Made by a program: the position numbers and the translations under genes. The notes below the pieces were generated by a model that searched no databases, was not told the DNA's origin, and saw nothing but the letters and a program-made list of their open reading frames with translations. Shown in pieces: positions 1-16,183 of a stretch of DNA of 16,183 bases. The stretch's first letter is position 1. Every line of letters starts with the position of its first letter. Source of the DNA: a virus; UHGV virus genome UHGV-0286155. One strand, 5' to 3'.

Positions 1-37
1 AGTCATCTGGGGCGGAGTAACAGTATTTAAACGGTTC

Positions 38-608: not shown

Positions 609-615
609 TCAATAA

Positions 616-993: not shown

Positions 994-1010
994 CAACTTT
1001 CTCCACAAAA

Positions 1011-2006
1011 TCAGGCCAGCACGCCAATTGCCAGCGCACGATCGATAAAACGAAATATCAGCTCCAGCTGAGAGCCATACTTTTCTTCAAATACCACGGT
1101 ATCCGCATGCAGCTCGTCGTGATGCTTTCTGCACAAAGGCAGCACGAAGAGGTCATGCGCTTTTGTACCCATTCCACCCTGACCGTGGCCTATCAGGTGG
1201 TGGGGATCATCTGCAGGCTTTCCACAACATGCACACGGCTGCGTCTTAACCCAGCGCGTGTACTTTTCGTTAACCCAGCGGCGACGTTTGGGACGTAACA
1301 TAAAAGACTCCGGCGACTCCGGATCCACTTTCAGCGCCAGCACCTTTTTCGCCTTATCCTGGATGATGCTGGTGGCAGGAACCGAAGGCACAAGGTCACT
1401 TTCCCGGGTAACAGACGGCACAACAGGCTTCGGTAATCTCAGTGCCTTACGGGCTGCACTTTCCGGTAAGGCATCCGCCAGATCATTACGAATCAGCCAC
1501 CAGCACAGTTCCGGCATTGTCACAACGTGACTGTCATCAAAACCGAGATCCCGACGCACAACAGACAACACCCAGCGGGCACAGTTATCCGTTGCCATTG
1601 ATTCCAGCCGTTCCGTGAACTGATCGCGCAGCTGGTTATCGCAGTGCCAGCACAGACGGATTGCACCCGGAGCGTGTCGCATTGTGGTCATGTTCTCGCT
1701 GTGCCAGTCGGAATGAGGCCACTGGCAGCCTTTTTCACGAAGTAACCAGCTTTCAAGACATTCCACGCCACCAGCACGACGGATCACTGCCTCATTGCGG
1801 AACACGGCCCGAACAGCAGGATCATCCGCCAGCGGTTGTGATGCCGCGGGAACGGCACCACTGGCGAAAGATGAATAACGTTCCGGCTCAGGCTCCAGCA
1901 GTACACGCCCCTGCATAAACAGGGGCATCAGCTCTGAACCTGGTCTGAACAATACGATCCCCATACGCGGGGCAATTTCAGGGGTCAGTAGTGCTCTCAC
2001 GGTCAC
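1011..2006 (-). CDS. DUF968/YdfU-like prophage protein with C-terminal Cys/His cluster
   Basis: 331-aa ORF directly upstream of Q, as ydfU is in the Qin prophage. The C-terminus carries CACCGKPADDPHHLIGHG...CRKHHDELH, a zinc-finger/HNH-like Cys-His motif. Tightly packed with its neighbours. Confidence 0.5.
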   Translation of the reverse strand: MTVRALLTPEIAPRMGIVLFRPGSELMPLFMQGRVLLEPEPERYSSFASGAVPAASQPLADDPAVRAVFRNEAVIRRAGGVECLESWLLREKGCQWPHSDWHSENMTTMRHAPGAIRLCWHCDNQLRDQFTERLESMATDNCARWVLSVVRRDLGFDDSHVVTMPELCWWLIRNDLADALPESAARKALRLPKPVVPSVTRESDLVPSVPATSIIQDKAKKVLALKVDPESPESFMLRPKRRRWVNEKYTRWVKTQPCACCGKPADDPHHLIGHGQGGMGTKAHDLFVLPLCRKHHDELHADTVVFEEKYGSQLELIFRFIDRALAIGVLA

Positions 2007-2007
2007 C

Positions 2008-2805
2008 TCAATGAACGGTATCGAGCAGCTTTAACAGCTCAGGGAATCGGGATTCGAAGAAATGCGGCTGCGTCTCGCGCGGATTTGCAGGACTGGTAAT
2101 GTTCTTGCCGAACATGCAGCCTTTCGCCGTCAGCGACCAGAATTTTTTGATGTTGTTAATCGCGGTACGGCTGTATCGTTCGCGCTGCTCGACGATCCCC
2201 AGCTTCACCATCTGGTGATATGCCTGATTAGCTGTCAGGCGGATACCATACTGCTTCAGCAATGCACTCAGTGACAGCGTGGGGCGGCTTGAGCCATCAG
2301 GCGCGTCAGCAGGAGCATCAATGGCATAGCGCGGTGCCAGATTCGGTAAGCCAACAGCCTCCTGAAGTTTCTGACAGGCTCCAAGCACTGAAGAGTTAGA
2401 CAGATTTAACTCCCGGCGCATAAAGTCCAGCAGAATCACGCCAGCCTGCATCTTGTCAGCAGCCTGTCCGGATAATTTTTCAGGTGCGCTGGTTACCATG
2501 TCGAAAGTACGGATCACCTTCAGATGGAATGACGGGCTGATCCACATTGCATAGGCATACACCAGTTCTTTGCAGACATACGTCCCCTGGTTATTTCCGC
2601 CACGAATAACGTTAACTGGCTCTATATTGACCGAGTTGCAAATCTGCAACTCGCTTATTAAACGTTCAGTTTGCTCATTGCGGAGCCAGAATGCAGGCTT
2701 ATGCTTATCCAGAGAACCGGCAGCCCTGTGCAGATCGTTCAGGCTGTAACGACCATAAGCATCACGACGAACTTCAATACCATCAATGACCATCAGATTA
2801 TTCAT
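2008..2805 (-). CDS. KilA-N domain protein (antirepressor-like)
   Basis: The N-terminus MVIDGIEVRRDAYGRYSLNDLHRAAG...PAFWLRNEQ fits the KilA-N DNA-binding domain signature. Strong RBS GAGGAGAAA upstream of the ATG at 2805. Confidence 0.6.
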   Translation of the reverse strand: MNNLMVIDGIEVRRDAYGRYSLNDLHRAAGSLDKHKPAFWLRNEQTERLISELQICNSVNIEPVNVIRGGNNQGTYVCKELVYAYAMWISPSFHLKVIRTFDMVTSAPEKLSGQAADKMQAGVILLDFMRRELNLSNSSVLGACQKLQEAVGLPNLAPRYAIDAPADAPDGSSRPTLSLSALLKQYGIRLTANQAYHQMVKLGIVEQRERYSRTAINNIKKFWSLTAKGCMFGKNITSPANPRETQPHFFESRFPELLKLLDTVH

Positions 2806-2824
2806 ACTTCGTTTCTCCTCTTAA

Positions 2825-3214
2825 TCAGGCGGCTGCACCCGCCGGTTTCTCGTACTTACTGATAGTGATCTCGACCTTCCCTTCCGGGATAACCGGTCCC
2901 CACTCCACCAGCATTCTTTTCACCTGACTGTCGTCTTCCCACACACCCGCGTGGGTCAGGGCGTCAAACAGCGCCTTGTTATAGTTGTCCAGATCGCGGA
3001 TCCGGTTATCCGGAGGAAACAACACGATCTCCACTGAAGCTGGTGCCGACGTTGGTTTCGGCAGACGGCGTAACTGCTCAATGATGGCGGCACACGCCGC
3101 GCCCTGGAATTTACGCCCCGCCGCGCTTATCAGGCTCTTACCTGCAAAAGCCCCTTTGTTGGGGTGTCGCCAGTACGTGTTCACGCTGGGGGGAAACGGC
3201 AGGATCAGCTTCAT
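2825..3214 (-). CDS. rusA: Holliday junction resolvase RusA
   Basis: 129 aa. N-terminal LPFPPSVNTYWRH and the central DLDNYNKALFDALTHAGVWEDD acidic motif are characteristic of the RusA family. The start overlaps the upstream stop as ATGA. Confidence 0.8.
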   Translation of the reverse strand: MKLILPFPPSVNTYWRHPNKGAFAGKSLISAAGRKFQGAACAAIIEQLRRLPKPTSAPASVEIVLFPPDNRIRDLDNYNKALFDALTHAGVWEDDSQVKRMLVEWGPVIPEGKVEITISKYEKPAGAAA

Positions 3215-3537
3215 ACTTTCAGCCCCCTCTCATGTAACCAGTGGGCTGCACGCAGCCTGCCGTTTTCCTCACCGGCAAGCAGTGCGCGGATAATCCCGAC
3301 CGCCTCGCTGTCGTCGTCCTTCACCGCGGTATGAAGCGTTATCCCCCGGGCCACGCCACGCTTTATCGTGATGACGCCTTTTTTCTCCAGTGCGCGAAGA
3401 TGCTCTACCGCTGCATTCACTGAACGGTATCCCAGCATGGTTGCCACCTCCTGATTGGTTGGCGGGAAGCCACGTTCTTGCTGGTAAGAAATCAGCATAT
3501 CCAGCACCTGCTGCTGGCATTGAGTTAACGTCGTCAT
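3211..3537 (-). CDS. LexA N-terminal DNA-binding-domain-like protein lacking the S24 peptidase domain
   Basis: The first ~70 aa align from memory with the LexA winged-helix domain: QQQVLDMLISYQQERGFPPTNQEVATMLGYRSVNAAVEHLRALEKKGVI against LexA [49 protein letters not shown]. No Ala-Gly/Ser-Lys protease module follows. ATGA overlaps with both neighbours. Confidence 0.55.
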   Translation of the reverse strand: MTTLTQCQQQVLDMLISYQQERGFPPTNQEVATMLGYRSVNAAVEHLRALEKKGVITIKRGVARGITLHTAVKDDDSEAVGIIRALLAGEENGRLRAAHWLHERGLKV

Positions 3538-4187
3538 GCCGCCATCTCCCTGACCAGTTTTTCCGCCTGCTGGCGAACCTGCACCAGAAACGCCTCACCA
3601 CATGCCTCAAGTTCATCGCGCCCGATGTAGCTGATTGCCGGTCCCTTCCAGGTCTTGTCGAAAACAGCAATAGCACCAGCGAAGAAAGCACCTGTCGGCA
3701 CCTGCTTCTCGTCCTTCGGGATAAACCAGGCAGGCAGTTCAAAACCAATACGCCCGCGAATAAAAGCAATATGGTCCGCATCTTCCGGCCACCACACTTC
3801 ACTGGTGGCAGCTTTGATCAGGAAAACATAGCGCCCGCCTTTATCACGCATGGCACTGGCATGTTTCATGATGTAACGCATGCCGGTGATGTATTGCCCC
3901 TCATGCTGACTGGCGCGGCTGTATGGGGGATTACCAAAGGCAGCACCTTTAAGCTCCGCAAGGCGTTCTGACCAGTCATGCGCCAGCGCGTTGTCTTCCG
4001 CCGTGTAATACGCGGCACATTTGGCGTTATCACCGTCAGTGAACAGATCCAGAACAAACGGGCCAAACAGGGTGTTAATTCCCCAGAAAATGTTGTCCGG
4101 CGTGCGCCACTGATCGCCCACTTCCTTCAGTTCATGGGCTGGTTTGTTCCGCAGTTCCACCAGTGCCTGACAATATTTATTACTCAT
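3534..4187 (-). CDS. phage-type DNA N6-adenine methyltransferase (Dam-like)
   Basis: NPPY catalytic motif (AAFGNPPYSRA) and overall phage Dam-family resemblance. The preferred start is the ATG at 4187 (MSNKYCQ...), which overlaps the upstream stop as TAATG; the track start at 4220 would overlap the upstream gene by 34 nt. Confidence 0.7.
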   Translation of the reverse strand: MSNKYCQALVELRNKPAHELKEVGDQWRTPDNIFWGINTLFGPFVLDLFTDGDNAKCAAYYTAEDNALAHDWSERLAELKGAAFGNPPYSRASQHEGQYITGMRYIMKHASAMRDKGGRYVFLIKAATSEVWWPEDADHIAFIRGRIGFELPAWFIPKDEKQVPTGAFFAGAIAVFDKTWKGPAISYIGRDELEACGEAFLVQVRQQAEKLVREMAA

Positions 4188-4675
4188 TAAGCCCCCACGT
4201 AATTCCCTGACAGATACCACTCTTCACCCGATGCAGCGCGCTTGCTGCTTTTCTGTAAGCACTGCTCACGACGCGCCAGAAAATTGTTTCGTTCTGGCTG
4301 GGAGTGGCTTTCACGGAATACCGCCATCCACACGGTTGCAGCACGACGGTATAAGCCCCTGGACTCCAGTTCTTCAGCCTGGCGGGTCAGGCACAAAATC
4401 ACCCGTGGATCGTTAGTGCCGACATAGAAATTGCGCACAGGTCTGGTTTCTCGAACTGGTTGTGGTTCCGGTTCCTGCGCTCTCTCAGTCAGGCGCGGGA
4501 AATGTCTGCGTGTATCTCCTTCACAACGGTGAGCCACACGCCCACTCTGACGTAACTTGCTTGCTGACTGCAGAACGCGCTGCCGTGAGTAACCTGCAAA
4601 AGCATCCGCAATGTCTCCGGAAGTACATCCCGGATGGGCTTCAATGAATTTCTGAACTTCATTCAAAAGACTCAT
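4187..4675 (-). CDS. hypothetical protein with PerC/Pch-like C-terminal motif
   Basis: The C-terminal AEELESRGLYRRAATVWMAV resembles, from memory, the AE-LE--G-(W/Y)RRAA--W signature of PerC/Pch activators. The ATG at 4675 has an AGGGGG RBS; the track start at 4681 is a GTG. Confidence 0.4.
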   Translation of the reverse strand: MSLLNEVQKFIEAHPGCTSGDIADAFAGYSRQRVLQSASKLRQSGRVAHRCEGDTRRHFPRLTERAQEPEPQPVRETRPVRNFYVGTNDPRVILCLTRQAEELESRGLYRRAATVWMAVFRESHSQPERNNFLARREQCLQKSSKRAASGEEWYLSGNYVGA

Positions 4676-4677
4676 GA

Positions 4678-5619
4678 TCACCCCCTGAATCCTGCCGGGA
4701 TCTGGCTGTAGTCCACGTTGTCGTAACTGGATTTGAAGTACGGGTCTTCGCGTTTTTCGGTGTACGTGCTGACGGACGGTGATAAGCGCAGGGAAAGCTC
4801 ATCCCATTTTTCCCGCAACTTCGACGGGCTGAGCACGTTACGGCACCAGAACGGATCGCGGCTGACGCGGCTGTACATCTCGCAGATTTGTTTGTGAGTA
4901 CGACCATCCTGCACACACATCAGGCGAATTTCGTTTGCCCAGGCTGTCCAGTTCGGTTCTTTGGGACGAACCACCTCGCCGTCACATTCGGCGGCTTGCT
5001 CGTACAGGGCGATGATTTTTTTCCAGAGCCACTGTGCGCAGGTCAAATCATCCTGCGTTCCCCACTGGCGCTTTTTAGGGCTGAATACAACCGCATCAGG
5101 ATGGCGAGTTAAAAAATCCTGTTCATCCGTCTGCGTGTCCGGTTGCGAAGCGTCCGGACGAGAAGGTTTTTTATCTGACGGATCATGTTTTGATTTTACT
5201 GACGGATCCCCGCCAGATTCTGACGGGTGAAAACCCGCTTTTTTGCCAGATTTCGACGCATCAAATTTTGACGGGTCAGATTTTGATGCGTCAGATTTTG
5301 ACGGGTCAGAATCTGACAGTTGAGAAAATGCCGCTGCCTGAAGCTTCGCAACGTTAAGCTGATAAACATTCGACGCATTGCGGTTACCCTGGCGACGCGC
5401 CTTACGCGTTAACCAGCCTTCTGCTTCCAGCCGTGCGATAGCCGTCCTGACGGTACTCATCCCCGCGCCAATCTGACGGGCAATAGTTTCAATTGATGGC
5501 CAGCACACACCTTCGTCATTACTGAAATCAGCCAGGCGGGCCATAATTGCCACGCTGGATAATTTCATGCCTGATGCAGCGCAACCATCCCATACATAGC
5601 CGGTTAATTTAGTGCTCAT
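4678..5619 (-). CDS. replication initiator, lambda O-like architecture (N-terminal HTH, iteron-encoded linker)
   Basis: N-terminal HTH-type domain (WPSIETIARQIGAGMSTVRTAIARLEAEGWL), then a low-complexity linker SDSDPSKSDASKSDPSKFDASKSGKK encoded by the tandem DNA repeats at 5214-5321, then a C-terminal domain. It sits where lambda O sits, downstream of cro and the CII-position gene. GAGGT RBS before the ATG at 5619. Confidence 0.6.
   Translation of the reverse strand: MSTKLTGYVWDGCAASGMKLSSVAIMARLADFSNDEGVCWPSIETIARQIGAGMSTVRTAIARLEAEGWLTRKARRQGNRNASNVYQLNVAKLQAAAFSQLSDSDPSKSDASKSDPSKFDASKSGKKAGFHPSESGGDPSVKSKHDPSDKKPSRPDASQPDTQTDEQDFLTRHPDAVVFSPKKRQWGTQDDLTCAQWLWKKIIALYEQAAECDGEVVRPKEPNWTAWANEIRLMCVQDGRTHKQICEMYSRVSRDPFWCRNVLSPSKLREKWDELSLRLSPSVSTYTEKREDPYFKSSYDNVDYSQIPAGFRG
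5214..5321. repeat. iteron array, candidate replication origin inside the initiator gene
   Basis: Five tandem 15-bp units at 5247-5321 (CAGATTTCGACGCAT, CAAATTTTGACGGGT, CAGATTTTGATGCGT, CAGATTTTGACGGGT, CAGAATCTGACAGTT) plus a further copy at 5214-5228 and degenerate copies at about 5170-5207. Each unit has a TGACG..GTCA-type internal dyad. Confidence 0.55.
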
Positions 5620-5628
5620 GACCGACCT

Positions 5629-5967
5629 CTATTTCCCTGAATTTACGACGAAACTGTTCGAGCGGGCTGAAGCACTCATGCTCATAGCCTTCGCGGAGGT
5701 AGATAACTCGTTGTGTTTCCGGCTCCCAACGAATGACTCTGACGGGCACTCCGTAGTGATCTTTGAACCAGCGGTTAACTTGTCGCAAAGGACTGTCTCC
5801 TTCTGCCGGTTGAAATCACCCACAGCCCACTCAGCAAAGCTGTGGGTTACAATTTCCCTGTCACCTGGTACATTAACTGCATAGCAATACTCCACCTTCG
5901 CTTTTCCACCCGGTACAGGAAGCGCAATCAGTTGCGAGCGACGGTAGTGTGTTGTTAAACTGTTCAT
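5629..5967 (-). CDS. hypothetical protein
   Basis: 112-aa ORF in the operon orientation. Its ATG overlaps the upstream stop as ATGA and it ends 10 nt before the initiator gene's RBS. No family recognised. A plus-strand 90-aa ORF (5612..5884, GTG start) overlaps it and cannot be excluded. Confidence 0.35.
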
Positions 5968-6572
5968 GCGTTAGTTTCTCCACAGTCACGACACGCCACG
6001 GCGCCCGGAGCTGCACACTCGCGGGCGTCATTACTTTCTGAAATGCAAAAGATTTTGTAGACCAGTGCTGCATGCTCCTGCAGCTTCGAAATTGAGAGAT
6101 ACAGCTCGTCGTTAATTGCTGTCTTCTCATGCGGTTCCACCACACCGTCTTCGATTGCCGAACGAATCTGTCTGGAATAACTGCCAATCTGTTCAATGAC
6201 TTCCAGCAGGCGCTGGTTAATATCGGCGTTGTCCACATCCTCGACGTCAGGAAGAGACACAAAGACGCCATTTGCAGACTGCGCCACAGCGTCAGCAATG
6301 AAGTGAGTTCCACCAGCACGTTGCAAAATCATTGCCCATCCCAGCGGGAAAATCTGATCGCCATCGGCACGAAGGCGGTTAAATAATGCGTTTTCTGTTA
6401 CATCCAGCCAGTCAGCTGCTTCAGCGTAACCACCCGGCAACGCTGCGATAGTTTTTCTGACAGCTTTCACGTACCACTCAGGCTGTTTTTCTACTTTCCA
6501 GTGATGCTTACCCACGGTTAGCCTCATCGTTCTGTGGTTTCTGTTAATCGATTTATCCATTAGATTTTTCAT
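5964..6572 (-). CDS. CII-position regulatory protein (putative)
   Basis: ORF directly downstream of the cro-like gene. Preferred start is the ATG at 6572 (MKNLMDK...), which slightly overlaps the cro stop; the track start at 6629 would overlap cro by 77 nt. Cys cluster at the C-terminus ([14 protein letters not shown]). Function assigned by synteny only. Confidence 0.4.
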
Positions 6573-6753
6573 AAAGCTCAGGTTTAAATGGCAACCGTCC
6601 GCAAGTTCTATATGCAGCTTCTGCTGCACGTCCTTTTGGAATTAACTGGCCCGGACGGTTTCGCCACTGATAAACGGCTTCAGTTGTTATGCCGAAAAAA
6701 GCAGCAACTTTCTCAATACTGCCGAAGTAGCTTTCGATATCGTCAGTTGTCAT
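6553..6753 (-). CDS. Cro-like HTH repressor (YdaS/Cro family)
   Basis: 66 aa. HTH segment VAAFFGITTEAVYQWRN..IPKGRAAE. Divergent from the CI-like gene across a 97-bp operator region. GGAGGG RBS. Confidence 0.6.
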   Translation of the reverse strand: MTTDDIESYFGSIEKVAAFFGITTEAVYQWRNRPGQLIPKGRAAEAAYRTCGRLPFKPELYEKSNG

Positions 6754-6850
6754 ACGCCCTCCAAGCTAAGTTTTATTAGATGCTAATTACAAATCTATCT
6801 TTGGTCAATAAAAACTAAGATTACTTAGCAATTCAAGAAATGGTGCTCCT
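6754..6850. promoter_or_regulatory. divergent immunity promoter/operator region (PR/PRM-like)
   Basis: Intergenic region between the cro-like and cI-like genes. Palindromes ATTAGATGCTAAT (6775-6787) and CTAAGATTACTTAG (6815-6828). On the minus strand TTGACC-N17-TAGCAT is a candidate PR, with the first palindrome overlapping its -10. Confidence 0.5.
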
Positions 6851-7477
6851 ATGGAAACGGTTGGTCAGCGTATAAAAGCTCTGAGAAGAGTTACCGGAAC
6901 GTCCCAGAAAGAATTGGGTAAATTTTGTGGAGTAAGCGACGTTGCTGTGGGGTACTGGGAGAAAGACATCAATACCCCTGGTGGGGAGGCACTTTCGAAA
7001 TTAGCGAAGTTCTTCAATACGTCAATAGATTACATTCTTTATGGTGCTGAGTTTGAAGGCAAACTCGTCACAAACATGCGCAGAGTTCCTGTAATATCGT
7101 GGGTTCAGGCTGGGCAGTTTACTGAGTGCAGGGCAGCAGAAGTGTTTAGTGAAGTGGACAAGTGGGTAGATACATCATTAAAGATTGGTGATAACTCATT
7201 TGCATTAGAGGTTAAAGGTGACTCCATGACTAACCCTAATGGCCTCCCAACAATACCAGAAGGCGCAACAGTGATTGTAGATCCAGATGCAGAACCTCGT
7301 CATGGAAAAATAGTCATCGCTCGACTTGATGGAACAAACGAAGCTACAGTAAAAAAATTAGTCATCGATGGCCCTCAAAAGTTTTTAGTGCCATTAAATC
7401 CTCGGTATCCCAACATCCCTATCAATGGTAATTGCCTTATCATTGGTGTAGTCAAAGGAGTTCAATACGAACTCTAA
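6851..7477 (+). CDS. CI-like prophage repressor (HTH_XRE + S24 LexA-type peptidase domain)
   Basis: N-terminal HTH (QRIKALRRVTGTSQKELGKFCGVSDVAVGYWE), an Ala-Gly candidate autocleavage site (VQAGQF), the Ser motif KGDSMTNP and a downstream Lys (ATVKKLV) typical of the S24 family. Confidence 0.8.
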   Translation: METVGQRIKALRRVTGTSQKELGKFCGVSDVAVGYWEKDINTPGGEALSKLAKFFNTSIDYILYGAEFEGKLVTNMRRVPVISWVQAGQFTECRAAEVFSEVDKWVDTSLKIGDNSFALEVKGDSMTNPNGLPTIPEGATVIVDPDAEPRHGKIVIARLDGTNEATVKKLVIDGPQKFLVPLNPRYPNIPINGNCLIIGVVKGVQYEL

Positions 7478-7661
7478 GACCTCTCTTCTCTAACTAAGGC
7501 ACCGAACTAAGAAAAGTTTGGTGTTTTCTCTTGCCACAATAACTAAGTTAAGTTAGATTTTATATCAAAGATAACGAACAGGCAGGACGCCCACGAAGTA
7601 GCCGCCGGTGGCGTATGAATGACCGGATGATTCGTTAAATACTATGTGTAAGAGAGCGCAA

Positions 7662-7865
7662 ATGAACCGTTATTTCACATGCTCGTTTTGTGGCGCAAAC
7701 GAGCTGCAGGCAAAAAAAATCATCGCCAAAGGCGGAAAAGATGAAGTTGCTATCTGCTCTGAGTGCGTAGTCTTGTGTGTCGGGGCATTAATCAATATCA
7801 GCACAACTATTCAGTTCACACCAAATGAGAATGCGCCTTTAGATGCGAGGAAATCTGGAGGTTAA
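7662..7865 (+). CDS. small protein with ClpX-type C4 zinc-binding domain
   Basis: YFTCSFCGANELQAKKIIAKGGKDEVAICSECVVLCVGAL aligns from memory with the ClpX N-domain [37 protein letters not shown], including both Cys pairs. Start chosen at the ATG at 7662; the track start is 7644. Confidence 0.55.
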   Translation: MNRYFTCSFCGANELQAKKIIAKGGKDEVAICSECVVLCVGALINISTTIQFTPNENAPLDARKSGG

Positions 7866-7924
7866 AGAACAAAATGAAAGTCCAGATTTTAAACAATAAC
7901 TGTGAAGTCGTTTGGGCGTAAAAC

Positions 7925-8131
7925 ATGACCGCGCGTAGACCAAGGGAGGAAAAAGTGGGAATAGTTAGAAATCAAGCAGATATATTGAAAATCAGCTCTG
8001 AATTGCTTGGAGTTTTGAAAAGTGAGCTCACCGCACATGGCATCGAGCCCACTGACGAAAATTTAAGTTGGGTTTTGTCGATTATTCAACAATCACTCAA
8101 GCCCAGCCTCAGCAAACTTTTTATCGAGTAG
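7925..8131 (+). CDS. hypothetical small protein
   Basis: 68-aa ORF in the operon orientation. No recognisable family; not N-like, as it lacks an Arg-rich motif. Confidence 0.25.
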   Translation: MTARRPREEKVGIVRNQADILKISSELLGVLKSELTAHGIEPTDENLSWVLSIIQQSLKPSLSKLFIE

Positions 8132-8284
8132 TGCTTCGAACTTATCGTAAAGCTTGCTTATGTCGTCTATCGGGTTTTCTGACGTACTGTAATTTTTATC
8201 TGATGTCATGGCAGCAGTCTGATATGCAGTGTGAGTCTTAACCGATAGTTGGAATAAATAAAGAATTTTTTCTTCTTTGGTCAT
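8093..8284 (-). CDS. hypothetical small protein, antisense to the operon
   Basis: The ATG at 8284 is preceded by an AAGGAAA RBS. 63 aa. Its 3' end overlaps the 7925..8131 ORF by 39 nt. Confidence 0.3.
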   Translation of the reverse strand: MTKEEKILYLFQLSVKTHTAYQTAAMTSDKNYSTSENPIDDISKLYDKFEALLDKKFAEAGLE

Positions 8285-8394
8285 AACTATTTCCTTCTTG
8301 GCTATATGAAAACACCAAGATACCACCGAGCCTGAAGTGGTGAAAAGACAGGCACATAACAGCTAAGTATTTTCAACCAGAGAGAATCCTTAGC

Positions 8395-8710
8395 GTTGTG
8401 GTGAATGCGGCTCAGCGCACGCGGGTTAAGGTTGAGGCTGACAGTCGACCTTCTGTGGATACCCACCCGCCTGGTGTGCAACCTTCGCCAGGCACCGGGA
8501 GGCACCCGGCACCACAACTTTATGCTGTGTGTAGTCTTGGCGGTACCAGCTTGTACCCTTGCTTCCGGCTGGTACCGTCCTTTTTACAAAACAGAGAAGA
8601 GCATCACCGGACGACGGGCTCATAACCCAATCCATCCGGGCGGCTGCCACCGCAGGTGTTCTTCTCTGTTTTGTGGAGAAACTAACCGCCCCTACGGGGG
8701 CATTTATGGA
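8395..8710. ncRNA. candidate structured non-coding RNA locus, strand undetermined
   Basis: GC-rich stretch carrying only mutually overlapping ORFs in several frames with implausible Arg/Cys/Pro-rich products. Nested inverted repeats: GGTACCAGC/GCTGGTACC (8542-8576), a 14-bp long-range stem ACAAAACAGAGAAG/CTTCTCTGTTTTGT (8586-8599 with 8661-8674), CCGGG-AGGCA-CCCGG (8495-8509), and GCCCC-UACG-GGGGC (8688-8701) followed by AUUUAU. Confidence 0.3.
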
Positions 8711-8798
8711 AATGTAATTGACTCAATAATCGCCGGACGGTGAGGGCCTCCTTTTACCCGAATTCAGCGCGGTGCAGCGCATATACGTGGAGAACAAA

Positions 8799-9335
8799 AT
8801 GTCATTTATTAAAACTTTTTCCGGGAAGCATTTTTATTATGACAGGATAAATAAAGACGACATCGTTATTAACGATATCGCGGTTTCCCTTTCAAATATC
8901 TGTCGCTTTGCAGGACATCTTTCACACTTCTACAGTGTCGCCCAACATGCGGTGCTTTGCAGCCAGCTAGTGCCACAGGAATTTGCTTTTGAAGCTTTAA
9001 TGCATGATGCAACAGAAGCATATTGCCAGGACATCCCCGCACCACTGAAACGACTTCTTCCTGACTATAAACGGATGGAAGAAAAAATAGACGCCGTAAT
9101 CCGTGAGAAATACGGGTTACCTCCTGTTATGAGCACGCCAGTGAAATATGCCGATCTCATTATGCTGGCAACCGAACGCCGCGATCTCGGGCTTGATGAT
9201 GGCTCTTTCTGGCCTGTACTGGAAGGTATCCCGGCAACAGAGATGTTCAAAGTGATTCCACAGGCACCGGGCCATGCCTACGGGATGTTTATGGAACGTT
9301 TTAACGAGTTATCGGAGTTACGCAAATGCGCATGA
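8799..9335 (+). CDS. HD-domain phosphohydrolase (YfdR-like)
   Basis: H...HD...D metal-binding pattern (SVAQHAVL, ALMHDATEA, CQDIPAPLKRLL). GGAGAA RBS before the ATG at 8799 gives a 178-aa product, matching from memory the length of E. coli YfdR. Confidence 0.7.
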   Translation: MSFIKTFSGKHFYYDRINKDDIVINDIAVSLSNICRFAGHLSHFYSVAQHAVLCSQLVPQEFAFEALMHDATEAYCQDIPAPLKRLLPDYKRMEEKIDAVIREKYGLPPVMSTPVKYADLIMLATERRDLGLDDGSFWPVLEGIPATEMFKVIPQAPGHAYGMFMERFNELSELRKCA

Positions 9336-9688
9336 ATGTTTTCGAAATGGAAGGGTTTCTTCGTGGGAGATGTGTACCGCGAGATCTGAAAGTGAATGAA
9401 ACAGATGCTGAATACCTGGTGCGTAAATTCGATGCGCTTGAAGCTAAATGTGCAGCACAGGAAAACAAAGTAATACCAGTGTCAACTGAACTGCCACCAG
9501 CAAATGAAAGTGTTTTGTTATTCGATGCTAACGGAGAAGGCTGGCTAATTGGCTGGCGTTCTCTCTGGTACACCTGGGGACAAAAAGAAACCGGAGAATG
9601 GCAGTGGACATTTCAGGTCGGGAGCCTTGAAAACGTCAATATCACTCACTGGGCAGTAATGCCAAAAGCACCGGAGGCTGGAGCATAA
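9326..9688 (+). CDS. small Trp-rich prophage protein (DUF551/YfdS-like)
   Basis: 120 aa with a Trp-rich C-terminal half (GWLIGWRSLWYTWGQKETGEWQWTF). Start overlaps the HD gene stop. Size and position after the HD gene parallel yfdS from memory. Confidence 0.4.
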   Translation: MRMNVFEMEGFLRGRCVPRDLKVNETDAEYLVRKFDALEAKCAAQENKVIPVSTELPPANESVLLFDANGEGWLIGWRSLWYTWGQKETGEWQWTFQVGSLENVNITHWAVMPKAPEAGA

Positions 9689-9993
9689 TGACCACTTTTA
9701 CCGACAAAGAACTGATTAAAGAAATTAAAGAGCGTATCAGCAGCCTTGACGTGCGAGACGATATTGAGCGCCGTGCTTATGAAATCGCACTCCTATCTCT
9801 GGAAGTAGAACCAGATGAACGCGAAGCTTATGAATTATTCATGGAAAAGCGTTTCGGTGACTTAGTAGATCGTCGGAGAGCAAAAAACGGCGATAACGAA
9901 TACATGGCATGGGATATGACTCTCGGTTGGATCGTCTGGCAGCAACGAGCAGGTCTCCATTTTTCAACAATGTCACAACAAGAGGTGAAATAA
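9688..9993 (+). CDS. hypothetical protein (YfdT-like by position)
   Basis: 101-aa ORF. The ATG overlaps the upstream stop as TAATG with a GGAG RBS. Acidic and helical in composition. Confidence 0.4.
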   Translation: MTTFTDKELIKEIKERISSLDVRDDIERRAYEIALLSLEVEPDEREAYELFMEKRFGDLVDRRRAKNGDNEYMAWDMTLGWIVWQQRAGLHFSTMSQQEVK

Positions 9994-10343
9994 TGGAGCC
10001 ATACAGCCTCACACTCGATGAGGCCTGTCATTTTCTCAAGATATCCAGACCGACTGCCATTAACTGGATACGCACAGGGCGTCTTCAGGCAACACGCAAA
10101 GATCCCACTAAGAATAAATCTCCTTACCTCACAACACGACAAGCCTGCATTGCGGCTCTTCAGTCTCCGCTGCATACTGTCCAGGTGAGCGCGGGTGATG
10201 GCATAACAGAGGAAAGAAAATGTCACTCTTCCGCAGAGGTGAAATATGGTACGCCAGTTTCACATTGCCGAACGGTAAAAGATTTAAACAGTCTCTTGGA
10301 ACAAAGGACAAAAGGCAGGCGACAGAACTCCATGACAAGCTAA
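9993..10343 (+). CDS. xis: excisionase (Xis), P22-like long form
   Basis: Start at the ATG at 9993 (GAGGTG RBS, TAATG overlap with the upstream stop). HTH-like [26 protein letters not shown]. 116 codons. Directly upstream of int, overlapping its 5' end by about 124 nt. Confidence 0.5.
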
Positions 10344-11383
10344 AGGCTGAAGCATGGCGGGTCAGCAAACTTGGTGAAATACCTGATATAACGTTCGAGG
10401 AAGCGTGTGTCAGGTGGCTTGAAGAGAAAGCACATAAAAAATCACTGGACGATGACAAAAGCCGGATCGGATTCTGGCTTCAACATTTCGCAGGAATGCA
10501 ACTAAGAGACATTACTGAATCAAAAATTTATTCAGCAATGCAGAAAATGACGAACCGGCGTCATGAGGAAAACTGGAAACTCAGGGCAGAAGCATGCAGA
10601 AAAAAAGGGAAACCTGTTCCAGAATACACGCCAAAACCAGCGTCCGTTGCAACGAAGGCTACGCATCTTTCATTTATAAAGGCCCTACTAAGAGCCGCAG
10701 AGCGTGAATGGAAAATGCTGGATAAGGCACCAATTATTAAAGTGCCCCAACCAAAGAATAAACGGATCCGCTGGCTGGAGCCCCATGAAGCACAAAGGCT
10801 GATTGATGAATGTCCGGAGCCATTAAAGTCTGTTGTTGAATTTGCACTGGCAACAGGCTTAAGACGCTCGAACATCATCAACCTTGAATGGCAACAAATA
10901 GATATGCAGCGCCGGGTGGCATGGATAAACCCGGAAGAGAGTAAATCAAACCGCGCAATTGGCGTTGCGCTGAATGATACTGCATGTCGCGTATTGAAAA
11001 AACAAATCGGGAATCATCACCGTTGGGTATTTGTGTACAAGGAAAGCTGTACCAAACCAGACGGAACGAAAGCGCCAACAGTCAGGAAGATGCGGTATGA
11101 CGCAAACACAGCCTGGAAAGCGGCGCTGAGACGGGCTGGTATTGATGATTTCAGATTTCACGACTTGAGACACACATGGGCAAGTTGGCTGGTTCAAGCC
11201 GGAGTCCCGTTGTCAGTGTTACAGGAAATGGGAGGCTGGGAGTCTATCGAAATGGTTCGTCGATATGCTCACCTTGCACCTAATCACCTTACCGAACACG
11301 CACGGCAAATAGACTCGATCCTAAACCCATCGGTCCCAAATTTGTCCCAGTCAAAAAATAAGGAAGGTACTAATGATGTGTAA
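10220..11383 (+). CDS. int: tyrosine integrase, lambda/P22 family
   Basis: 387 aa. N-terminal arm-binding domain [27 protein letters not shown]. Catalytic signature residues in GLRRSN, HDLRHT and the Tyr in VRRYAHL. The gene ends 14 nt before the tRNA-Thr 3' segment. Confidence 0.9.
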
Positions 11384-11397
11384 CTTATTGATTTAAA

Positions 11398-11446
11398 TGG
11401 TGCCGATAATAGGAGTCGAACCTACGACCTTCGCATTACGAATGCG
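11398..11446 (-). tRNA. partial tRNA-Thr(CGU): 3' 49 nt only, att core
   Basis: The reverse complement CGCATTCGTAATGCGAAGGTCGTAGGTTCGACTCCTATTATCGGCACCA matches the anticodon arm through the 3' CCA of enterobacterial thrW as I recall it. The D-arm and 5' acceptor strand are absent; sequence beyond 11446 is unrelated. Confidence 0.75.
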
Positions 11447-11629
11447 AAGTTTTTATATTTTAACTGCTTGAACAACCATCAGAAATCACAAATTTATCAT
11501 TTTAAATCATAATATTAAAACAAAAAACCTGTTGATGTAAATTGATGAGTGTTGATGTTTATCCTTTCAATTTACTTACACCAGCCGTTACATTACTGTA
11601 AACCGTAATCCCCAACAGGAACCCTAAAA

Positions 11630-12949
11630 ATGGCGCTTTCAAGACAAAAACTAACCTTCGAACGAATTCGAAGATTTACTTTACCTGAAGGGAAAAACCA
11701 AGTTTTCCTTTGGGATACGGACGTAACAAGCTTGGCATGTCGAGCAACTCGTGGAGCAAAAGCCTTTGTATTCCAAAGCCTGTATGCGGGAAAAACCCTT
11801 CGCATGACCATTGGCAACATTAACGATTGGAGGATTGATGATGCGAGGGCCGAAGCCAGGCGACTGCAAACATTAATCGATACTGGGATAGATCCGCGTA
11901 TAGCTAAGGCGGAAAAAATTGCTGAAGCGGAATCACAGCAGGCTGAATCTCGTAAAACGAAGGCAACCTTTTCAAGCGCTTGGGAAGATTATCTTGATGA
12001 ATTGAGAACCGGAATCAGCGCAAAAACTAAACGCCCCTACTCTGCACGCTACATTGCCGATCACGTTAACTTGTCCAGTCGTGGAGGCGAAAGTAAAAAA
12101 AGAGGCCGGGGCTCAACCTCACCTGGGCCACTGGCTAGCCTGCTCGACCGACCATTATCAGAACTAACACCAGAGAACATTGCCGAATGGCTAAGTACAG
12201 AGAGACAAAATCGGCCTACCGTCACTGCTCATGCCTACCGTCTGTTGCGTGCATTCATCAAATGGGCTAATTACCAGAAAAAATATCAGGGAATAATCCA
12301 TGGCGATCTTGCACAAGATCATAACGTGAGAAAAATGGTTCCAATATCAGCGAGCAAAGCGGGAGATTGCTTACAAAAAGAACAGCTCAAAAGCTGGTTC
12401 AGTGCCGTGCGTAGCCTCAATAATCCCATTGCATCAGCCTATCTCCAAGTGCTTTTGCTCACCGGTGCACGGCGTGAAGAAATTTCCTCACTTCGCTGGT
12501 CTGACATAGATTTCAAATGGTCAAGCATGAGAATTAAAGACAAGATCGAAGGCGAGCGAATTATCCCCCTCACTCCCTATGTTTCTTACTTGTTACGCTC
12601 ACTGATGGAGATCCCTAATCGTGGTACAAACGAGGAGAATTGGGTTTTCAGAAGTAACAGCAAAAGTGGCAAAATTATTGAACCGCGTTCAGCACATAAT
12701 AGAGCATTAACTCGCGCGGAGTTACCACATATCAGCTTGCACGGATTGCGCCGTAGTTTTGGGACCCTCGCTGAATGGGTCGAAGTACCAACAGGTATTG
12801 TTGCGCAGATTATGGGCCATAAGCCTAGCGCTCTTGCTGAAAAGCACTATCGCCGCCGTCCATTAGATTTGCTAAGAAAATGGCATGAAAAAGTTGAATT
12901 ATGGATCTTAGAAGAAGCAAAAATAAAAAACAACGTTGATAAGCGTTGA
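11630..12949 (+). CDS. tyrosine integrase, P4/CP4-type
   Basis: 439 aa. The N-terminal pattern (LTFERIRRFTLPEGKNQVFLWDTDVTSLACR...GIDPR) is typical of P4-like integrases. Catalytic motifs LTGARREE, HGLRRSFGT and the Tyr in AEKHYRR. Begins about 180 nt from the tRNA fragment. Confidence 0.85.
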   Translation: MALSRQKLTFERIRRFTLPEGKNQVFLWDTDVTSLACRATRGAKAFVFQSLYAGKTLRMTIGNINDWRIDDARAEARRLQTLIDTGIDPRIAKAEKIAEAESQQAESRKTKATFSSAWEDYLDELRTGISAKTKRPYSARYIADHVNLSSRGGESKKRGRGSTSPGPLASLLDRPLSELTPENIAEWLSTERQNRPTVTAHAYRLLRAFIKWANYQKKYQGIIHGDLAQDHNVRKMVPISASKAGDCLQKEQLKSWFSAVRSLNNPIASAYLQVLLLTGARREEISSLRWSDIDFKWSSMRIKDKIEGERIIPLTPYVSYLLRSLMEIPNRGTNEENWVFRSNSKSGKIIEPRSAHNRALTRAELPHISLHGLRRSFGTLAEWVEVPTGIVAQIMGHKPSALAEKHYRRRPLDLLRKWHEKVELWILEEAKIKNNVDKR

Positions 12950-12985
12950 TTTTATCAAATATCAACAACTTACATAAAATCACAT

Positions 12986-13489
12986 GTGTTGACAGAAATT
13001 TTTTTTCAGTTATCTTTTATTACTGCTAACTACATTCACTCACTAAGCAGGAGATTAACTACAGTGACTAACCCAATAACTGTATCAAGAGAAGACCGAA
13101 GTGCGGAAATCAGAGCGAGATGGGGTTTACATCCGACTAAAAACAAAAGTTCTAATTTTTGGGAAACAACAATTCAGCGTTTTAATAATAGTAGTACTGA
13201 CCGAATACTACCTCTTTGGCACCGTGTTTCAAAACTTTTAGTTGCTATTAGGAATGTAGTCAATACTATAACATGCCCTTTTCCACCAAAGGGGAATACT
13301 TCCCGCTCACGCCGAGGTTCAACAACGTCATCAAAAAACTCATCATCATCTTCATCGGATGGTAGTAGTAGCGACCCCGATCCCGATAGAGACCCCATAT
13401 TCACCCCTTTTCATTTCATTCTTTCATCTCTTTTAAAAACAATGATCGTTTTATTTGCCCACATATCAAATGTTGGGGTGATGAAATGA
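12986..13489 (+). CDS. hypothetical low-complexity protein (doubtful)
   Basis: ORF with a GTG start whose stop overlaps the alpA-like ATG as ATGA. An alternative in-frame GTG at 13064 follows an AGGAGA RBS. The product is Ser/Asp-rich and of low complexity, and a 76-aa acidic ORF lies on the opposite strand (13174..13404). The coding strand is unresolved. Confidence 0.2.
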   Translation: MLTEIFFQLSFITANYIHSLSRRLTTVTNPITVSREDRSAEIRARWGLHPTKNKSSNFWETTIQRFNNSSTDRILPLWHRVSKLLVAIRNVVNTITCPFPPKGNTSRSRRGSTTSSKNSSSSSSDGSSSDPDPDRDPIFTPFHFILSSLLKTMIVLFAHISNVGVMK

Positions 13490-13707
13490 GCGATATCAAA
13501 CATCAAAAACCCTCTCAGTCACAACTAATTTCTACCCGCGAGTTAGCTAATATTATTGGCTATGAAGTACAAACTATTCGAGCTTGGCTTTGCAAAGACA
13601 AACTGCCTAATGGTTTACCGCGACCGAAGAAAATTAAAAACCGACATTATTGGTCACGTAAAGACATTGATAGATACCTATTAACCTTCTCAGTATATAG
13701 TAACTAA
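13486..13707 (+). CDS. AlpA-family HTH regulator/excisionase-like protein
   Basis: 73 aa. LISTRELANIIGYEVQTIRAWLCKDKLP matches the AlpA/phage-excisionase HTH pattern. Sits downstream of a P4-like integrase as in CP4-type islands. Confidence 0.6.
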   Translation: MSDIKHQKPSQSQLISTRELANIIGYEVQTIRAWLCKDKLPNGLPRPKKIKNRHYWSRKDIDRYLLTFSVYSN

Positions 13708-13720
13708 TAGAGGCCTCCCC

Positions 13721-13752
13721 CGGCTATTCTAAAGAATAGCCGGGTTAGTTAA
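13721..13752 (+). terminator. candidate intrinsic terminator after the alpA-like gene
   Basis: Perfect 11-bp stem CCCGGCTATTC/GAATAGCCGGG with a TAAA loop, followed by TTAGTT. Confidence 0.45.
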
Positions 13753-13829
13753 TACAAACCATCCATTAACAATGGGGGGAGATTAATACTATTTATCACA
13801 TCTCACATTAACAAAATTCAAGGTCACAT

Positions 13830-14594
13830 ATGAAAAAACGCATCACTTTCAGCGTAAACAATAGTTCTACTATTGATGCAATTGACGACTATAGCAATGC
13901 AAAAGGATACTCCAGGTCAGAGGTGATATCATTTTTATTAAACGCCACAGTCCCAGCATTGAATAAAATAACATCGCAATATCATATAGCTCAAACTTTG
14001 GAGTCAACATTAGGCTGTATTTTTGAAGAGAAGGCCCCGTCAATAGCACGGGGGGAGCCAAAATTAACTTACGAAGAGTTTTTTCATTCCGTCTGGAACA
14101 CTCACATTCGACACCGGAACGAGGTTATCGACCAGAATTTTTATGCACACAAAATATCTCATGATAAGATGGGGAAGAGTGAAAAAAAATTAATTCATGA
14201 AAAGCTCACATACATTATAAAAAGCTTCAATGTAAAAAAAGCAATTTTTATTTACACAGATCGGCGCGTGAACCACAAACATCTAATTGCAGGAGGGTTG
14301 TCAAATATCATACTGATAAAGGAAACAGTTTACGATGGTTGTTTTTTTGATTTGAGCAGCATTGTGATTATGCCAATCTTTGAACTTATTACATTTGGAA
14401 TTGAAGAGGTATTGAAAAGAAATAAAATCCACCATAAACAATCATGCTATTGCTGGATACCAATTTATTACACAAATGATCTAGCGGTAATGGTCCCGGT
14501 GATTGCCGAAGGCGATACACCTCAAAAGGCGATGAAAGGAGGAGATGCCATCATTATTAACCCCTTTAACGGTGAAGTAAACCATACTTTCTGA
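13830..14594 (+). CDS. RHH (ribbon-helix-helix) domain fusion protein, C-terminal domain unknown
   Basis: 254 aa. The N-terminus KRITFSVNNSSTIDAIDDYSNAKGYSRSEVISFLLN fits the CopG/Arc-type RHH pattern. The ~210-aa C-terminal region has no family I can recognise. Gene is visibly AT-rich relative to its neighbours. Confidence 0.5.
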   Translation: MKKRITFSVNNSSTIDAIDDYSNAKGYSRSEVISFLLNATVPALNKITSQYHIAQTLESTLGCIFEEKAPSIARGEPKLTYEEFFHSVWNTHIRHRNEVIDQNFYAHKISHDKMGKSEKKLIHEKLTYIIKSFNVKKAIFIYTDRRVNHKHLIAGGLSNIILIKETVYDGCFFDLSSIVIMPIFELITFGIEEVLKRNKIHHKQSCYCWIPIYYTNDLAVMVPVIAEGDTPQKAMKGGDAIIINPFNGEVNHTF

Positions 14595-14676
14595 TACCAA
14601 TGTTAAGCATAACCACTTAGTTGCATACATCTCGACAGTATGGAGTTAGTACCTAATAGCTTGATGAGGGTAAAAG

Positions 14677-14853
14677 ATGCCTACTAACAAAGCAAAATCA
14701 AAGAAAATTCTAGGAAGACCTGAAGGAAGTAAATATTACCATTTAATTCAGAGTGAGAAGGCTAAGCATTACTCTCAATCCAAGGTGGCAAAGATCTTAG
14801 GAATAAGTATTTCCACGGTAAAAAGACACTGGGATAACGGCATCTTTGGGTGA
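14677..14853 (+). CDS. small HTH protein (58 aa), not in the supplied ORF track
   Basis: ATG at 14677 with a GAGGG RBS, TGA at 14851. My own translation, MPTNKAKSKKILGRPEGSKYYHLIQSEKAKHYSQSKVAKILGISISTVKRHWDNGIFG, contains an HTH-like segment SKVAKILGISISTVKRHW. Confidence 0.3.
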   Translation: MPTNKAKSKKILGRPEGSKYYHLIQSEKAKHYSQSKVAKILGISISTVKRHWDNGIFG

Positions 14854-15055
14854 TTATAATTGCAGAGTTGCTTTTTAAGTATTTTACTGCATGGGTAATG
14901 GGTTGATAACAAGTTTTATTGTTGGAAAGGTATTATATAACAGTCATTACTATTAATAGTTAATTAATATAACTAACCACAGACATTCAGCTATGTCTGA
15001 TCATTTTACTGTATACGGCTATCATAAGCCGTAGGGCTAACTACAGGATCGAAGC

Positions 15056-15676
15056 ATGGAATTATATCATGGTTCCCATGGTGAGCATGTGCTCGCCTAT
15101 AAAAAACATATTGAACGAGTCGTCAATGATGCTATCAGTGAATTCCCTAGAACGATGGCGTTACGTGTTGATGTTCATTATCCACCCATTTTAGACAGAG
15201 GTGACACTGTTTGCTGTTTTCCTAATCTAGAGCCTGGTGCTATATCCCGTTTCCGTAATGCGTTAAATGCAATGCTGGAGGCCAATGAGAAAGCCAGAGC
15301 AGCTAACGGTAAACGAATTTATCCAAACCGTGTTCGTCACGTTTGGGTACGTGAGTTTTCCGAAGAGGGAAAATGCCACTTTCATCTTGGTCTTTTTTTT
15401 AATAAAGATGCTTATTACCATTTGGGTGATTATGAGACTGAAAGCAATTTACGAATGATGATTGTAAGAGCATGGTATAGCGCACTGGGATTGGAACTGG
15501 ATGATTATCCGGGATTGGTTCACTACCCTGAAAATTGTCGTTATATATTAGACGTCAATGATTTTAACTTTGAAGGAGAATACAATAAATTACTGAATCG
15601 TCTCGACTACCTAGCTAAACTCGATACAAAAGCTTATGGAGATGGCGACCGTAGCTTCGGCTGCAGTCGCGGGTAA
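15056..15676 (+). CDS. YagK/YfjJ-family protein (Inovirus Gp2-like)
   Basis: 206 aa. Resembles from memory the YagK/YfjJ proteins of CP4-type prophage islands. Contains HFHLGLFF, an H-hydrophobic-H motif. Confidence 0.6.
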   Translation: MELYHGSHGEHVLAYKKHIERVVNDAISEFPRTMALRVDVHYPPILDRGDTVCCFPNLEPGAISRFRNALNAMLEANEKARAANGKRIYPNRVRHVWVREFSEEGKCHFHLGLFFNKDAYYHLGDYETESNLRMMIVRAWYSALGLELDDYPGLVHYPENCRYILDVNDFNFEGEYNKLLNRLDYLAKLDTKAYGDGDRSFGCSRG

Positions 15677-15817
15677 TTTATTTTTTTCAGCAATGGCCTT
15701 TCTTATGGATGGAAAGGCCAGACCTTATATATCAAGACGATGGTGAGCGATAAAGTATTGTTTTCAAATAATCATCTGTTGCAGTAAACTCAGGGTGTTG
15801 GCCACTCATGGCCTGTG

Positions 15818-16180
15818 TTAGTGGAATAATCTTTGTCCTGACTCCCATCCCCTGAAATCAACGTAACCATAATCACGTAAGACTTCCATGATAATCGTAT
15901 TACGTGGTGAACGCTGACCTGCAACCATCTTTTCAACCGACATCGAATTATTCAGCGCCCCTGGGCTAATAACTTCAAATCGATTGCTATACAAGCCAAT
16001 CTCTATCTCAACAAAGCGTGTCCAGTCGCGATGAGCCAGTGCAGTCACTGCGAACTGTCGCTCAAGGCGATTCGGGATAACTATGTGTTCATGACCACCA
16101 CGTTTATATCGGTGGGTAGGCTGCTGATAACTCACCAGACCCAGTTCTTTCATGAGCTTTCCGGCAAGCCAGCGTCCCAT
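15818..16180 (-). mobile_element. possible IS-family transposase remnant, 5' part beyond window end
   Basis: The minus-strand ORF runs off the right edge. The segment [13 protein letters not shown]...[16 protein letters not shown]...RDWT resembles the region preceding the catalytic core of IS3-like transposases, but the downstream sequence does not continue into a recognisable DDE core, suggesting truncation or frameshift. Confidence 0.3.
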
Positions 16181-16183
16181 TTT

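Follow-up and report, generated by a model that had tools for sequence, protein, structure and literature searches.

thrW belongs to the most heavily used tDNA hot spots of Escherichia coli (PMC7545054). Bacteriophages of the SfV family integrate at this gene, next to proA, and a tandem has been obtained there experimentally, with phage SfI integrating at an att site of a resident SfX (Sun et al. 2011, PMC3306764). The prophages Sp1 and Sp2 of E. coli O157 Sakai are likewise both located at thrW, and an outbreak strain carries a so-called compound prophage at the same place. The distal boundary of the cryptic prophage CP4-6 of E. coli K-12, formed by the pseudo-tRNA ptwF and the integrase gene intF, has been described as having an “opposite-divergent” (“OD”) shape, and the K-12 intF promoter, assayed as the segment from -145 to +71 around the annotated ATG, is repressed approximately 23-fold by IntF (PMC2951348). 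More generally, site-specific accretion of integrative elements, leading to tandems of ICE, IME, and CIME, has been reviewed as a general model (PMC5704250), and phage-ICE tandems have been surveyed (PMC13651849).

Here we analyzed a stretch of 16,183 nt of the virus genome UHGV-0286155, hereafter referred to as the window. Very probably, it contains two independent thrW-targeting elements, a temperate phage and a genomic island, lying back to back and having in common a 49-base att copy, the middle att of a tandem array. The tRNA sequence is on the minus strand, and the order along the plus strand is SfIV-like phage, xis, int, core, intF, and CP4-6-like island, followed by intact thrW and proA, the last two being placed from proxy genomes. 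The relevant features are as follows.

1-11383, no strand assigned: right-hand early/regulatory and xis-int part of an SfIV/SfV/SfII-like temperate phage, running off the left edge of the window.
9909-10343, plus strand: open reading frame of the phage excisionase Xis, overlapping the start of int (Pfam HTH_17; co-linear with xis of SfI and SfIV).
10220-11383, plus strand: P22/SfV-type phage integrase, a tyrosine recombinase of 387 aa, apparently intact (Pfam Phage_integrase, 164 bits).
11381-11393, minus strand: candidate IHF site, AATCAATAAGTTA, fitting WATCAANNNNTTR, just past the CCA end of the tRNA; read from the sequence against the published consensus.
11398-11446, minus strand: pseudo-tRNA att repeat, the 3' segment of thrW tRNA-Thr(CGU) from the anticodon stem to CCA, 49/49 identical to thrW.
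11398-11443, minus strand: common core of phage attP and thrW, 46 bp, delimited by the end of free-phage homology at 11443, the SfI annotation, and the junction alignment.
11447-16183, no strand assigned: integrase-proximal end of a CP4-6-related genomic island, identified by synteny with K-12 and running off the right edge of the window.
11447-11629, plus strand: island arm between the core and intF, with a predicted intF promoter and predicted arm-type sites (homologous to K-12, where the autorepressed intF promoter is found in this arm; the function is inferred).
11571-11595, plus strand: 25-nt motif TTTACTTACACCAGCCGTTACATTA, present once in the window against a chance expectation of 0; candidate arm-type site of IntF.
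11630-12949, plus strand: CP4-6/P4-like integrase IntF, an open reading frame of 439 aa starting with MALSRQK (Arm-DNA-bind_3 and Phage_integrase domains).
13486-13707, plus strand: small HTH protein homologous to YkgV, a candidate factor for excision of the island or its regulation (Pfam HTH_17; 66% aa identity to K-12 YkgV).

On the plus strand, the att copy (11398-11446) has the sequence TGGTGCCGATAATAGGAGTCGAACCTACGACCTTCGCATTACGAATGCG, which, reverse-complemented, corresponds to the 49 nt at the 3' end of E. coli thrW. The match is exact at 49 of 49 positions, the stretch starting with the 5' strand of the anticodon stem and ending with CCA; only 10 of the following 27 nt, at the position of the 5' part of the tRNA, agree with thrW. 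The 49-mer occurs once in the window, compared to a chance expectation of 0. The aligned sequences show that both integrases recognize this same stretch of thrW from the anticodon stem to CCA, albeit over different lengths: the block of identity to the phage is 46 nt (11398-11443), whereas that to the island is 49 nt. Identity blocks that start at the anticodon stem are typical for this class of tRNA-targeting integrases. On the CCA side, the phage arm remains identical to the chromosomal attB flank for another 18 nt, back to 11380. The block GTAAC-N4-TGATTT beside the thrW core is kept in every core copy compared; the IHF assignment at 11381-11393 was made from the published consensus, and we treat it as a candidate site. 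At the opposite end of the core, the island arm extends the palindrome of the anticodon stem by three nucleotides (AAG); this extension was considered as a functional element and rejected, as it is not conserved in the K-12-type arm.

The left part of the window, up to position 11446, is 98-99% identical at the nucleotide level to prophages found in many E. coli genomes, and its gene order is that of the annotated prophages of ECONIH4 and FORC_081. Across positions 9300-11443, nucleotide identity reaches 99.4% with SfIV and ~99% with SfV and SfII, compared to ~80.6% with the int-xis region of P22. The integrase is identical to that of SfIV at all 387 residues and has the expected motifs, R215 and H314-x-x-R317. 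The start of xis annotated in SfI corresponds to window position 9993. The lineage and catalytic residues of Int, the 46-bp core downstream of int, and the overlapping xis upstream together define a P22/SfV-type module, in which int is separated from the tRNA fragment by 14 nt (11384-11397).

The right part of the window, 4.7 kb in length, is syntenic with the K-12 gene order intF-yagN-ykgV-yagM-yagK, with 88% aa identity for IntF and 29-66% for the other four proteins. At the nucleotide level, it is ~98-99% identical to islands of AW1.7 and ECONIH4, the continuation of which carries the scr sucrose genes. The protein encoded at 11630-12949 is 88% identical to residues 26-466 of K-12 IntF and has the IntF-type motifs R281, H371-x-x-R374, and the Y407 context; when PDB sequences were searched with this protein, no match was obtained at E ≤ 0.001. 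An arm-binding and catalytic integrase of the IntF lineage, reading divergently from a 49-bp thrW 3' repeat, identifies the island as CP4-6-type. Between the repeat and intF lies an arm of 183 nt (11447-11629), identical in AW1.7, where the island occurs alone, and homologous in K-12, with promoter-like hexamers at 11485-11513. Further along this arm, the 25-nt motif TTTACTTACACCAGCnGTTACATTA (11571-11595) is also carried by both arms of K-12 CP4-6, in the same orientation (positions 1502-1526 and 35557-35581 of locus L003). Because of this occurrence on both arms in one orientation, the motif suggests an arm-type site of the integrase rather than coding sequence.

The start and integrity of intF deserve comment. 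In ECONIH4 and AW1.7, PGAP reports an internal stop in the near-identical intF-type gene and labels it a pseudogene; going by this annotation, the island integrase may be non-functional. The 439-aa reading frame is nevertheless open, with all motifs present. In the window, a TAA at 11606-11608 closes the 25-codon N-terminal extension of the K-12 style, the upstream ATG equivalent being located at window position 11555, and this extension overlaps the 25-nt att-arm motif at 11571-11595. Since the K-12-style extension thus runs over a repeated att-arm motif, the shorter start, MALSRQK, is likely the real one. Probably, the 439-aa IntF is intact and the “pseudogene” label given to this intF allele is an error, an artefact of the long K-12 start.

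To dissect the junction, we performed a four-way alignment of the window with attP of SfIV and SfI, AW1.7, ECONIH4, and FORC_081, with K-12 also compared. To the left of the core, the window corresponds to the left arm of SfIV/SfI attP, except for one base (A instead of T at 11395), and the GenBank record of SfI annotates the 46-bp attP core 14 nt after the int stop. Past 11443, the free phages SfIV and SfI run TATAAGAATCC toward gtrA and gtrB; the window runs GCG AAGTTTTTATATTTTAACTGC, identical to AW1.7, a phage-free E. coli in which the layout is paoD, yagP', core, and the intF-type gene. In FORC_081, the same phage arm joins a complete thrW, followed by proA. In K-12, the CP4-6 feature takes in the last 49 nt of thrW and extends to a second copy of these 49 nt, located between intF and yagP, the overall layout being thrW...intF-core-yagP with intF reading away from the core. 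A tRNA fragment followed by intF reading away is therefore the standard distal boundary of CP4-6 and not a consequence of the tandem. What is particular to the window is the pairing of arms: because the left arm is the phage attP arm and the right arm is that of the island-only strain, 11398-11446 is, on the alignment, a hybrid att site, phage on the left and island on the right, which is the signature of a tandem array. Consistently, there are other strains in which the phage or the island occupies this chromosomal site by itself.

These results bear on most of what the original prediction had read from the sequence. The tRNA-Thr 3' segment of 49 nt lacking its 5' half is borne out (49/49 identities with thrW, then 10/27), and so is the boundary common to two elements, each arm matching one element that occurs alone (SfIV/SfI and FORC_081 on one side; AW1.7 and K-12 on the other). 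The “P22-type” integrase lies exactly the predicted 14 nt before the segment, and the label is fair, although SfIV/SfV-type is the exact description; the P4/CP4-type integrase, placed ~180 nt beyond the segment and reading away, is IntF (88% identity) at 183 nt exactly (11447-11629). The 49-nt length assigned to the core, in turn, holds for the island block and fails for the phage block, which is 46 nt.

Given that the window is a metagenomic contig, the outer att copies and the intact thrW were inferred from complete genomes with the same junction. ECONIH4 is 99.3% identical to window positions 10200-13000, and its intact thrW-proA lies 44 kb rightward of the junction. Approximately 37 kb to the left of the junction, the 46-bp core recurs with the phage P' arm TATAAGAATCC behind it, and the flank on the far side of this core matches the thrW-proximal end of K-12 CP4-6 exactly; the phage of ECONIH4 is thus sandwiched between two islands. 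In PD7, the same phage resides beside a K-12-type CP4-6. The far end of this phage reads yagP', a K-12-type chromosomal flank, the 46-bp core, and then TATAAGAATCC, and on the far side of the island lies a third core, adjacent to a further prophage. As for direct copies of the core, there is one in the window, and there are three in ECONIH4 and three in the examined stretch of PD7. The intact tRNA-Thr and other att copies that the original prediction had proposed to locate are accordingly present in ECONIH4, with further core copies in PD7, both serving as proxy genomes.

We also determined how common these arrangements are among 5426 complete E. coli genomes, counting matches to at least 80% of a junction query of 650-680 nt. 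The commonest state is a phage-type int beside intact thrW-proA (1492 genomes), whereas the island boundary, yagP next to the core and intF, was found in 312. The tandem junction of the window type occurs in 8 genomes (~0.15%), the island being of the window type in two of them and of the K-12 type in the rest; 32 genomes have the reverse order, with the proximal end of CP4-6 beside the core and the phage P' arm. Evidently, it is normal for thrW to hold arrays of at least two elements. An exact match to the 112-nt junction was not found in contigs representing one genome per species (0 matches), and the exact IntF-type protein was present in a single metagenomic contig, ENA ERZ27298377, which is 99.993% identical to window positions 1630-16183, junction included.

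The array would have been built by two site-specific integrations. Their order is not readable from the final structure, both histories giving an identical product. Accordingly, of the proposal that one element had integrated into the att repeat left by the other, the common boundary stands, whereas the proposed sequence of events is one of two equivalent histories. Nonetheless, we moderately favor the phage as the second arrival, entering the distal pseudo-tRNA repeat of a resident island, because it is nearly identical to active phages and occurs beside two diverged island types. The converse history, which we consider less probable but still well worth entertaining, is that the phage was already at thrW and a CP4-6-like island later entered the reconstituted intact thrW beside int, displacing the phage from the tRNA. 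Reasoning from the junction arms, this would yield the same product; the IntF-type open reading frame looks catalytically intact by sequence, and the phage beside intact thrW, as in the 1492 genomes counted above, would provide a frequent substrate. However, islands of the CP4-6 type are typically old and IS-ridden, and the 99-100% identity of the phage to active Shigella phages suggests its later arrival. Furthermore, the occurrence of the same phage arm next to two diverged types of islands is more simply accounted for by a mobile phage entering resident islands. The A/T difference in the spacer at 11395 was considered as a marker of order and discarded: it is a phage allele and uninformative in this respect. 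The A is common to AW1.7; in PD7, it is present at the phage-int junction, and the far-end core keeps the K-12-type flank.

Whichever element came second, the identification of two separate elements holds up well against the remaining explanations. The phage int and the island intF are co-directional and only 246 nt apart, as might be expected if the intF module were cargo of the phage, or the phage a part of the island, with the tRNA fragment an internal relic of one composite element. This is very unlikely, since the free phages SfIV and SfI continue past the 46-bp core into gtrA/gtrB and not into intF, the island exists without the phage in AW1.7 and K-12, and the phage exists without the island junction in FORC_081. 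Nor is there much to recommend an assembly chimera, in which two contigs from a metagenome would have been joined at a common repeat of 49-67 nt. The window does match a metagenomic contig, and the repeat is indeed common to phage-thrW and island boundaries, but eight finished E. coli chromosomes have the very same junction architecture and the 99.993% identity of another contig extends across the junction, leaving this explanation with a negligible share of the probability.

Finally, the Rfam tRNA model matches 11401-11473 on the minus strand with 36.3 bits, above the gathering cut-off of 29, but a functional divergent tRNA-Thr gene there is the least credible reading of all, given that ARAGORN calls no tRNA in the whole window (the same tool calls the intact thrW in the comparator loci), genuine thrW scores 71.8 bits, the 5' part agrees with thrW at 10/27 positions, the acceptor stem contains two non-standard pairs (NC line) and three of its other five pairs read as G-U, the GG of the D-loop is absent, and the sequence is the known pseudo-tRNA boundary of CP4-6. 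Only the anticodon and T arms, which are intact, account for the score of 36.3 bits, the alignment being poor in the acceptor stem and the D arm; the sequence at 11401-11473 does not form a complete tRNA-Thr cloverleaf, in which the acceptor stem would be paired and the D-arm residues conserved. For comparison, the K-12 pseudo-tRNA ptwF scores 45.5 bits. A residual full-length tRNA within the island arm, as Rfam matches of 36-45 bits might be taken to indicate, was likewise rejected, agreement of the 5' part being near chance. The repeat at 11398-11446 is thus the equivalent of K-12 ptwF, an att repeat and not a gene, as originally proposed, and an intact tRNA-Thr covering it, which would have spoken against that proposal, was looked for without success.

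The composition of the arms suggests how the two recombination systems might operate at the hybrid site. The P arm of the phage comprises int, the 14-nt spacer, and the candidate IHF site, and the arm of the island comprises the 183 nt with the predicted intF promoter and candidate arm sites. Strand exchange by both integrases is expected to occur in the region of the anticodon loop, with the symmetric anticodon stem on either side. Both strands of this stem (CGCA...TGCG) are retained in the 49-nt copy, and because of that the island repeat could still serve the phage integrase as a secondary attB. Phage Int together with Xis, acting on the hybrid site and the far-end core, would restore an island-only state resembling AW1.7, whereas IntF, acting on the hybrid site and thrW, would leave the phage beside thrW as in FORC_081. 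Joint excision by either enzyme would not be expected, judging from the arms, because the outermost sites lack a matched arm pair for either integrase. At the junction itself, a terminator-like hairpin with a T-run (11429-11459) is formed by the tRNA anticodon stem and the island arm and is specific to this junction. A speculative and improbable extension of these observations is that, with int and intF co-directional and 246 nt apart, transcription of the int operon of the induced phage crosses the hybrid att into intF, coupling excision of the island to prophage induction; were this so, the hairpin and T-run would act as a valve setting the amount of read-through.

Collectively, these results indicate that the array at thrW is real, ordinary, and already explained, every component having been described before. 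A phage and a CP4-6-type island in this order are uncommon, yet the combination is present in finished public genomes, and the window adds one more example to thrW as a stacking site for mobile elements. The practical value of the analysis lies mainly in annotation: it delimits two mobile elements of a metagenomic contig precisely and shows that the above-threshold match of the tRNA covariance model at 11401-11473 is a pseudo-tRNA. The locus opens no new question, and the only idea of interest, the transcriptional coupling of the two integrases, is speculative.

Comparison with the known systems places each half of the window precisely. The phage half resembles SfIV, SfV, SfII, and SfI of Shigella flexneri in its Int (100% identity to that of SfIV), the xis-int overlap, the 14-nt gap, the 46-bp attP core, and thrW as the target, and its attP spacer differs from that of SfIV and SfI by the single substitution at 11395 (A in the window, T in the phages). 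Where the window has the core followed by the island arm, the free phage has its gtr-side arm and an ordinary lysogen has the 5' half of the tRNA. The island half resembles the ptwF-intF boundary of K-12 CP4-6: a 49-bp thrW 3' repeat diverges from intF with ~110-180 nt of arm DNA in between, IntF is 88% identical, the gene order is syntenic, and the 25-nt motif lies upstream of intF. It differs in that the accessory proteins are only 29-66% identical and related complete islands carry scr rather than the K-12 cargo; furthermore, the N-terminal extension of IntF is stopped at 11606-11608 in the window, and the outer flank is phage DNA instead of the K-12 yagP. As an arrangement, the window is reminiscent of SfI/SfX, in which two elements occupy one tRNA att site with an att copy between them. 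However, in SfI/SfX both partners are phages and their integrases are closely related, whereas the window combines a phage with a non-phage island, the integrases of which belong to unrelated subfamilies (P22-type and P4/IntF-type). The same principle underlies the accretion of ICE, IME, and CIME as well as phage-ICE tandems, where an incoming element uses the att copy of the resident one, giving rise to arrays with complex excision. In those systems, co-transfer of the array by one integrase or by conjugation machinery has been demonstrated, whereas the window gives no sign of co-mobilization and its arm composition argues against joint excision.

The block GTAAC-N4-TGATTT(A/T)A adjoins the CCA end of the thrW core at window 11380-11397 and is kept at all thrW core copies examined, in the chromosomal flank and the phage arm as well as at the proximal ends of the islands. 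The attP/attB identity therefore reaches ~64-67 nt rather than 46-49 nt. The minus-strand segment AATCAATAAGTTA (11381-11393) matches the IHF consensus and represents a candidate IHF site. Further features lie between phage int and intF, one of them recurring in the CP4-6 locus of Escherichia coli K-12 (L003):

Window 11429-11459: terminator-like hairpin with a 9-bp stem and a 3-nt loop, followed by TTTTTATATT
Window 11571-11595: 25-nt motif TTTACTTACACCAGCnGTTACATTA, upstream of intF
L003 1502-1526 and 35557-35581: K-12 copies of the 25-nt motif

The hairpin, with phage int directly 5′ and intF 3′ of it, combines the tRNA anticodon stem-loop with the initial bases of the island arm; its T-run is absent from intact-thrW and K-12-type junctions. 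In K-12, the 25-nt motif is also present at the other end of CP4-6, ~55 nt past the CCA end of thrW and in unchanged orientation. L005, which spans the thrW-proximal end of the scr-type island of E. coli ECONIH4, yielded no exact match. We consider the motif a candidate arm-type binding site of IntF.

An in-frame TAA at window 11606-11608 closes the intF frame that would begin, as annotated in K-12, at the upstream ATG at 11555 (region 11555-11608). Near-identical intF-type genes of ECONIH4 and of strain AW1.7, which carries the island without the phage, are annotated as pseudogenes by PGAP because this codon closes the K-12-style extended frame. Given that the extension overlaps the repeated att-arm motif, the true K-12 start is probably located 25 codons downstream of the annotated one, and both pseudogene calls are probably false.

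The pseudo-tRNA att repeats at window 11401-11473 (minus strand) and L003 35679-35752 score 36.3 and 45.5 bits, respectively, with the Rfam tRNA model, both exceeding its gathering threshold of 29 bits; covariance-model pipelines could mislabel them as tRNA genes.

Within the phage region, a segment between the repressor and 5′-deoxynucleotidase genes (8365-8588, plus strand) matches the Rfam sRNA STnc100 with 43.4 bits (E = 1e-6), slightly below the family cut-off of 47 bits, and is probably a phage-borne homologue. The replication-initiator-like ORF 4678-5619 contains an extended, almost perfect inverted repeat or hairpin (5244-5318, minus strand), which gave a spurious mir-5880 hit and may correspond to phage origin repeats.

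E. coli PD7 has a third copy of the thrW core (L012 42927-42972, with identity ending at ...ACGAAT|CTGTAGC), which adjoins another prophage, carrying baseplate genes, past the CP4-6-type island; thrW itself is more distant. In ECONIH4 (L004 1-15620, L001), the far end of the phage adjoins a K-12-type CP4-6 proximal module (ykfA...ykfI), which is split by an IS66-family element and neighbored by the heat-resistance-island genes trx-GI, kefB-GI, and psiE-GI. At least three elements are therefore stacked at ECONIH4 thrW. The ECONIH4 phage differs from that of the window in carrying an ISSpu7 insertion.
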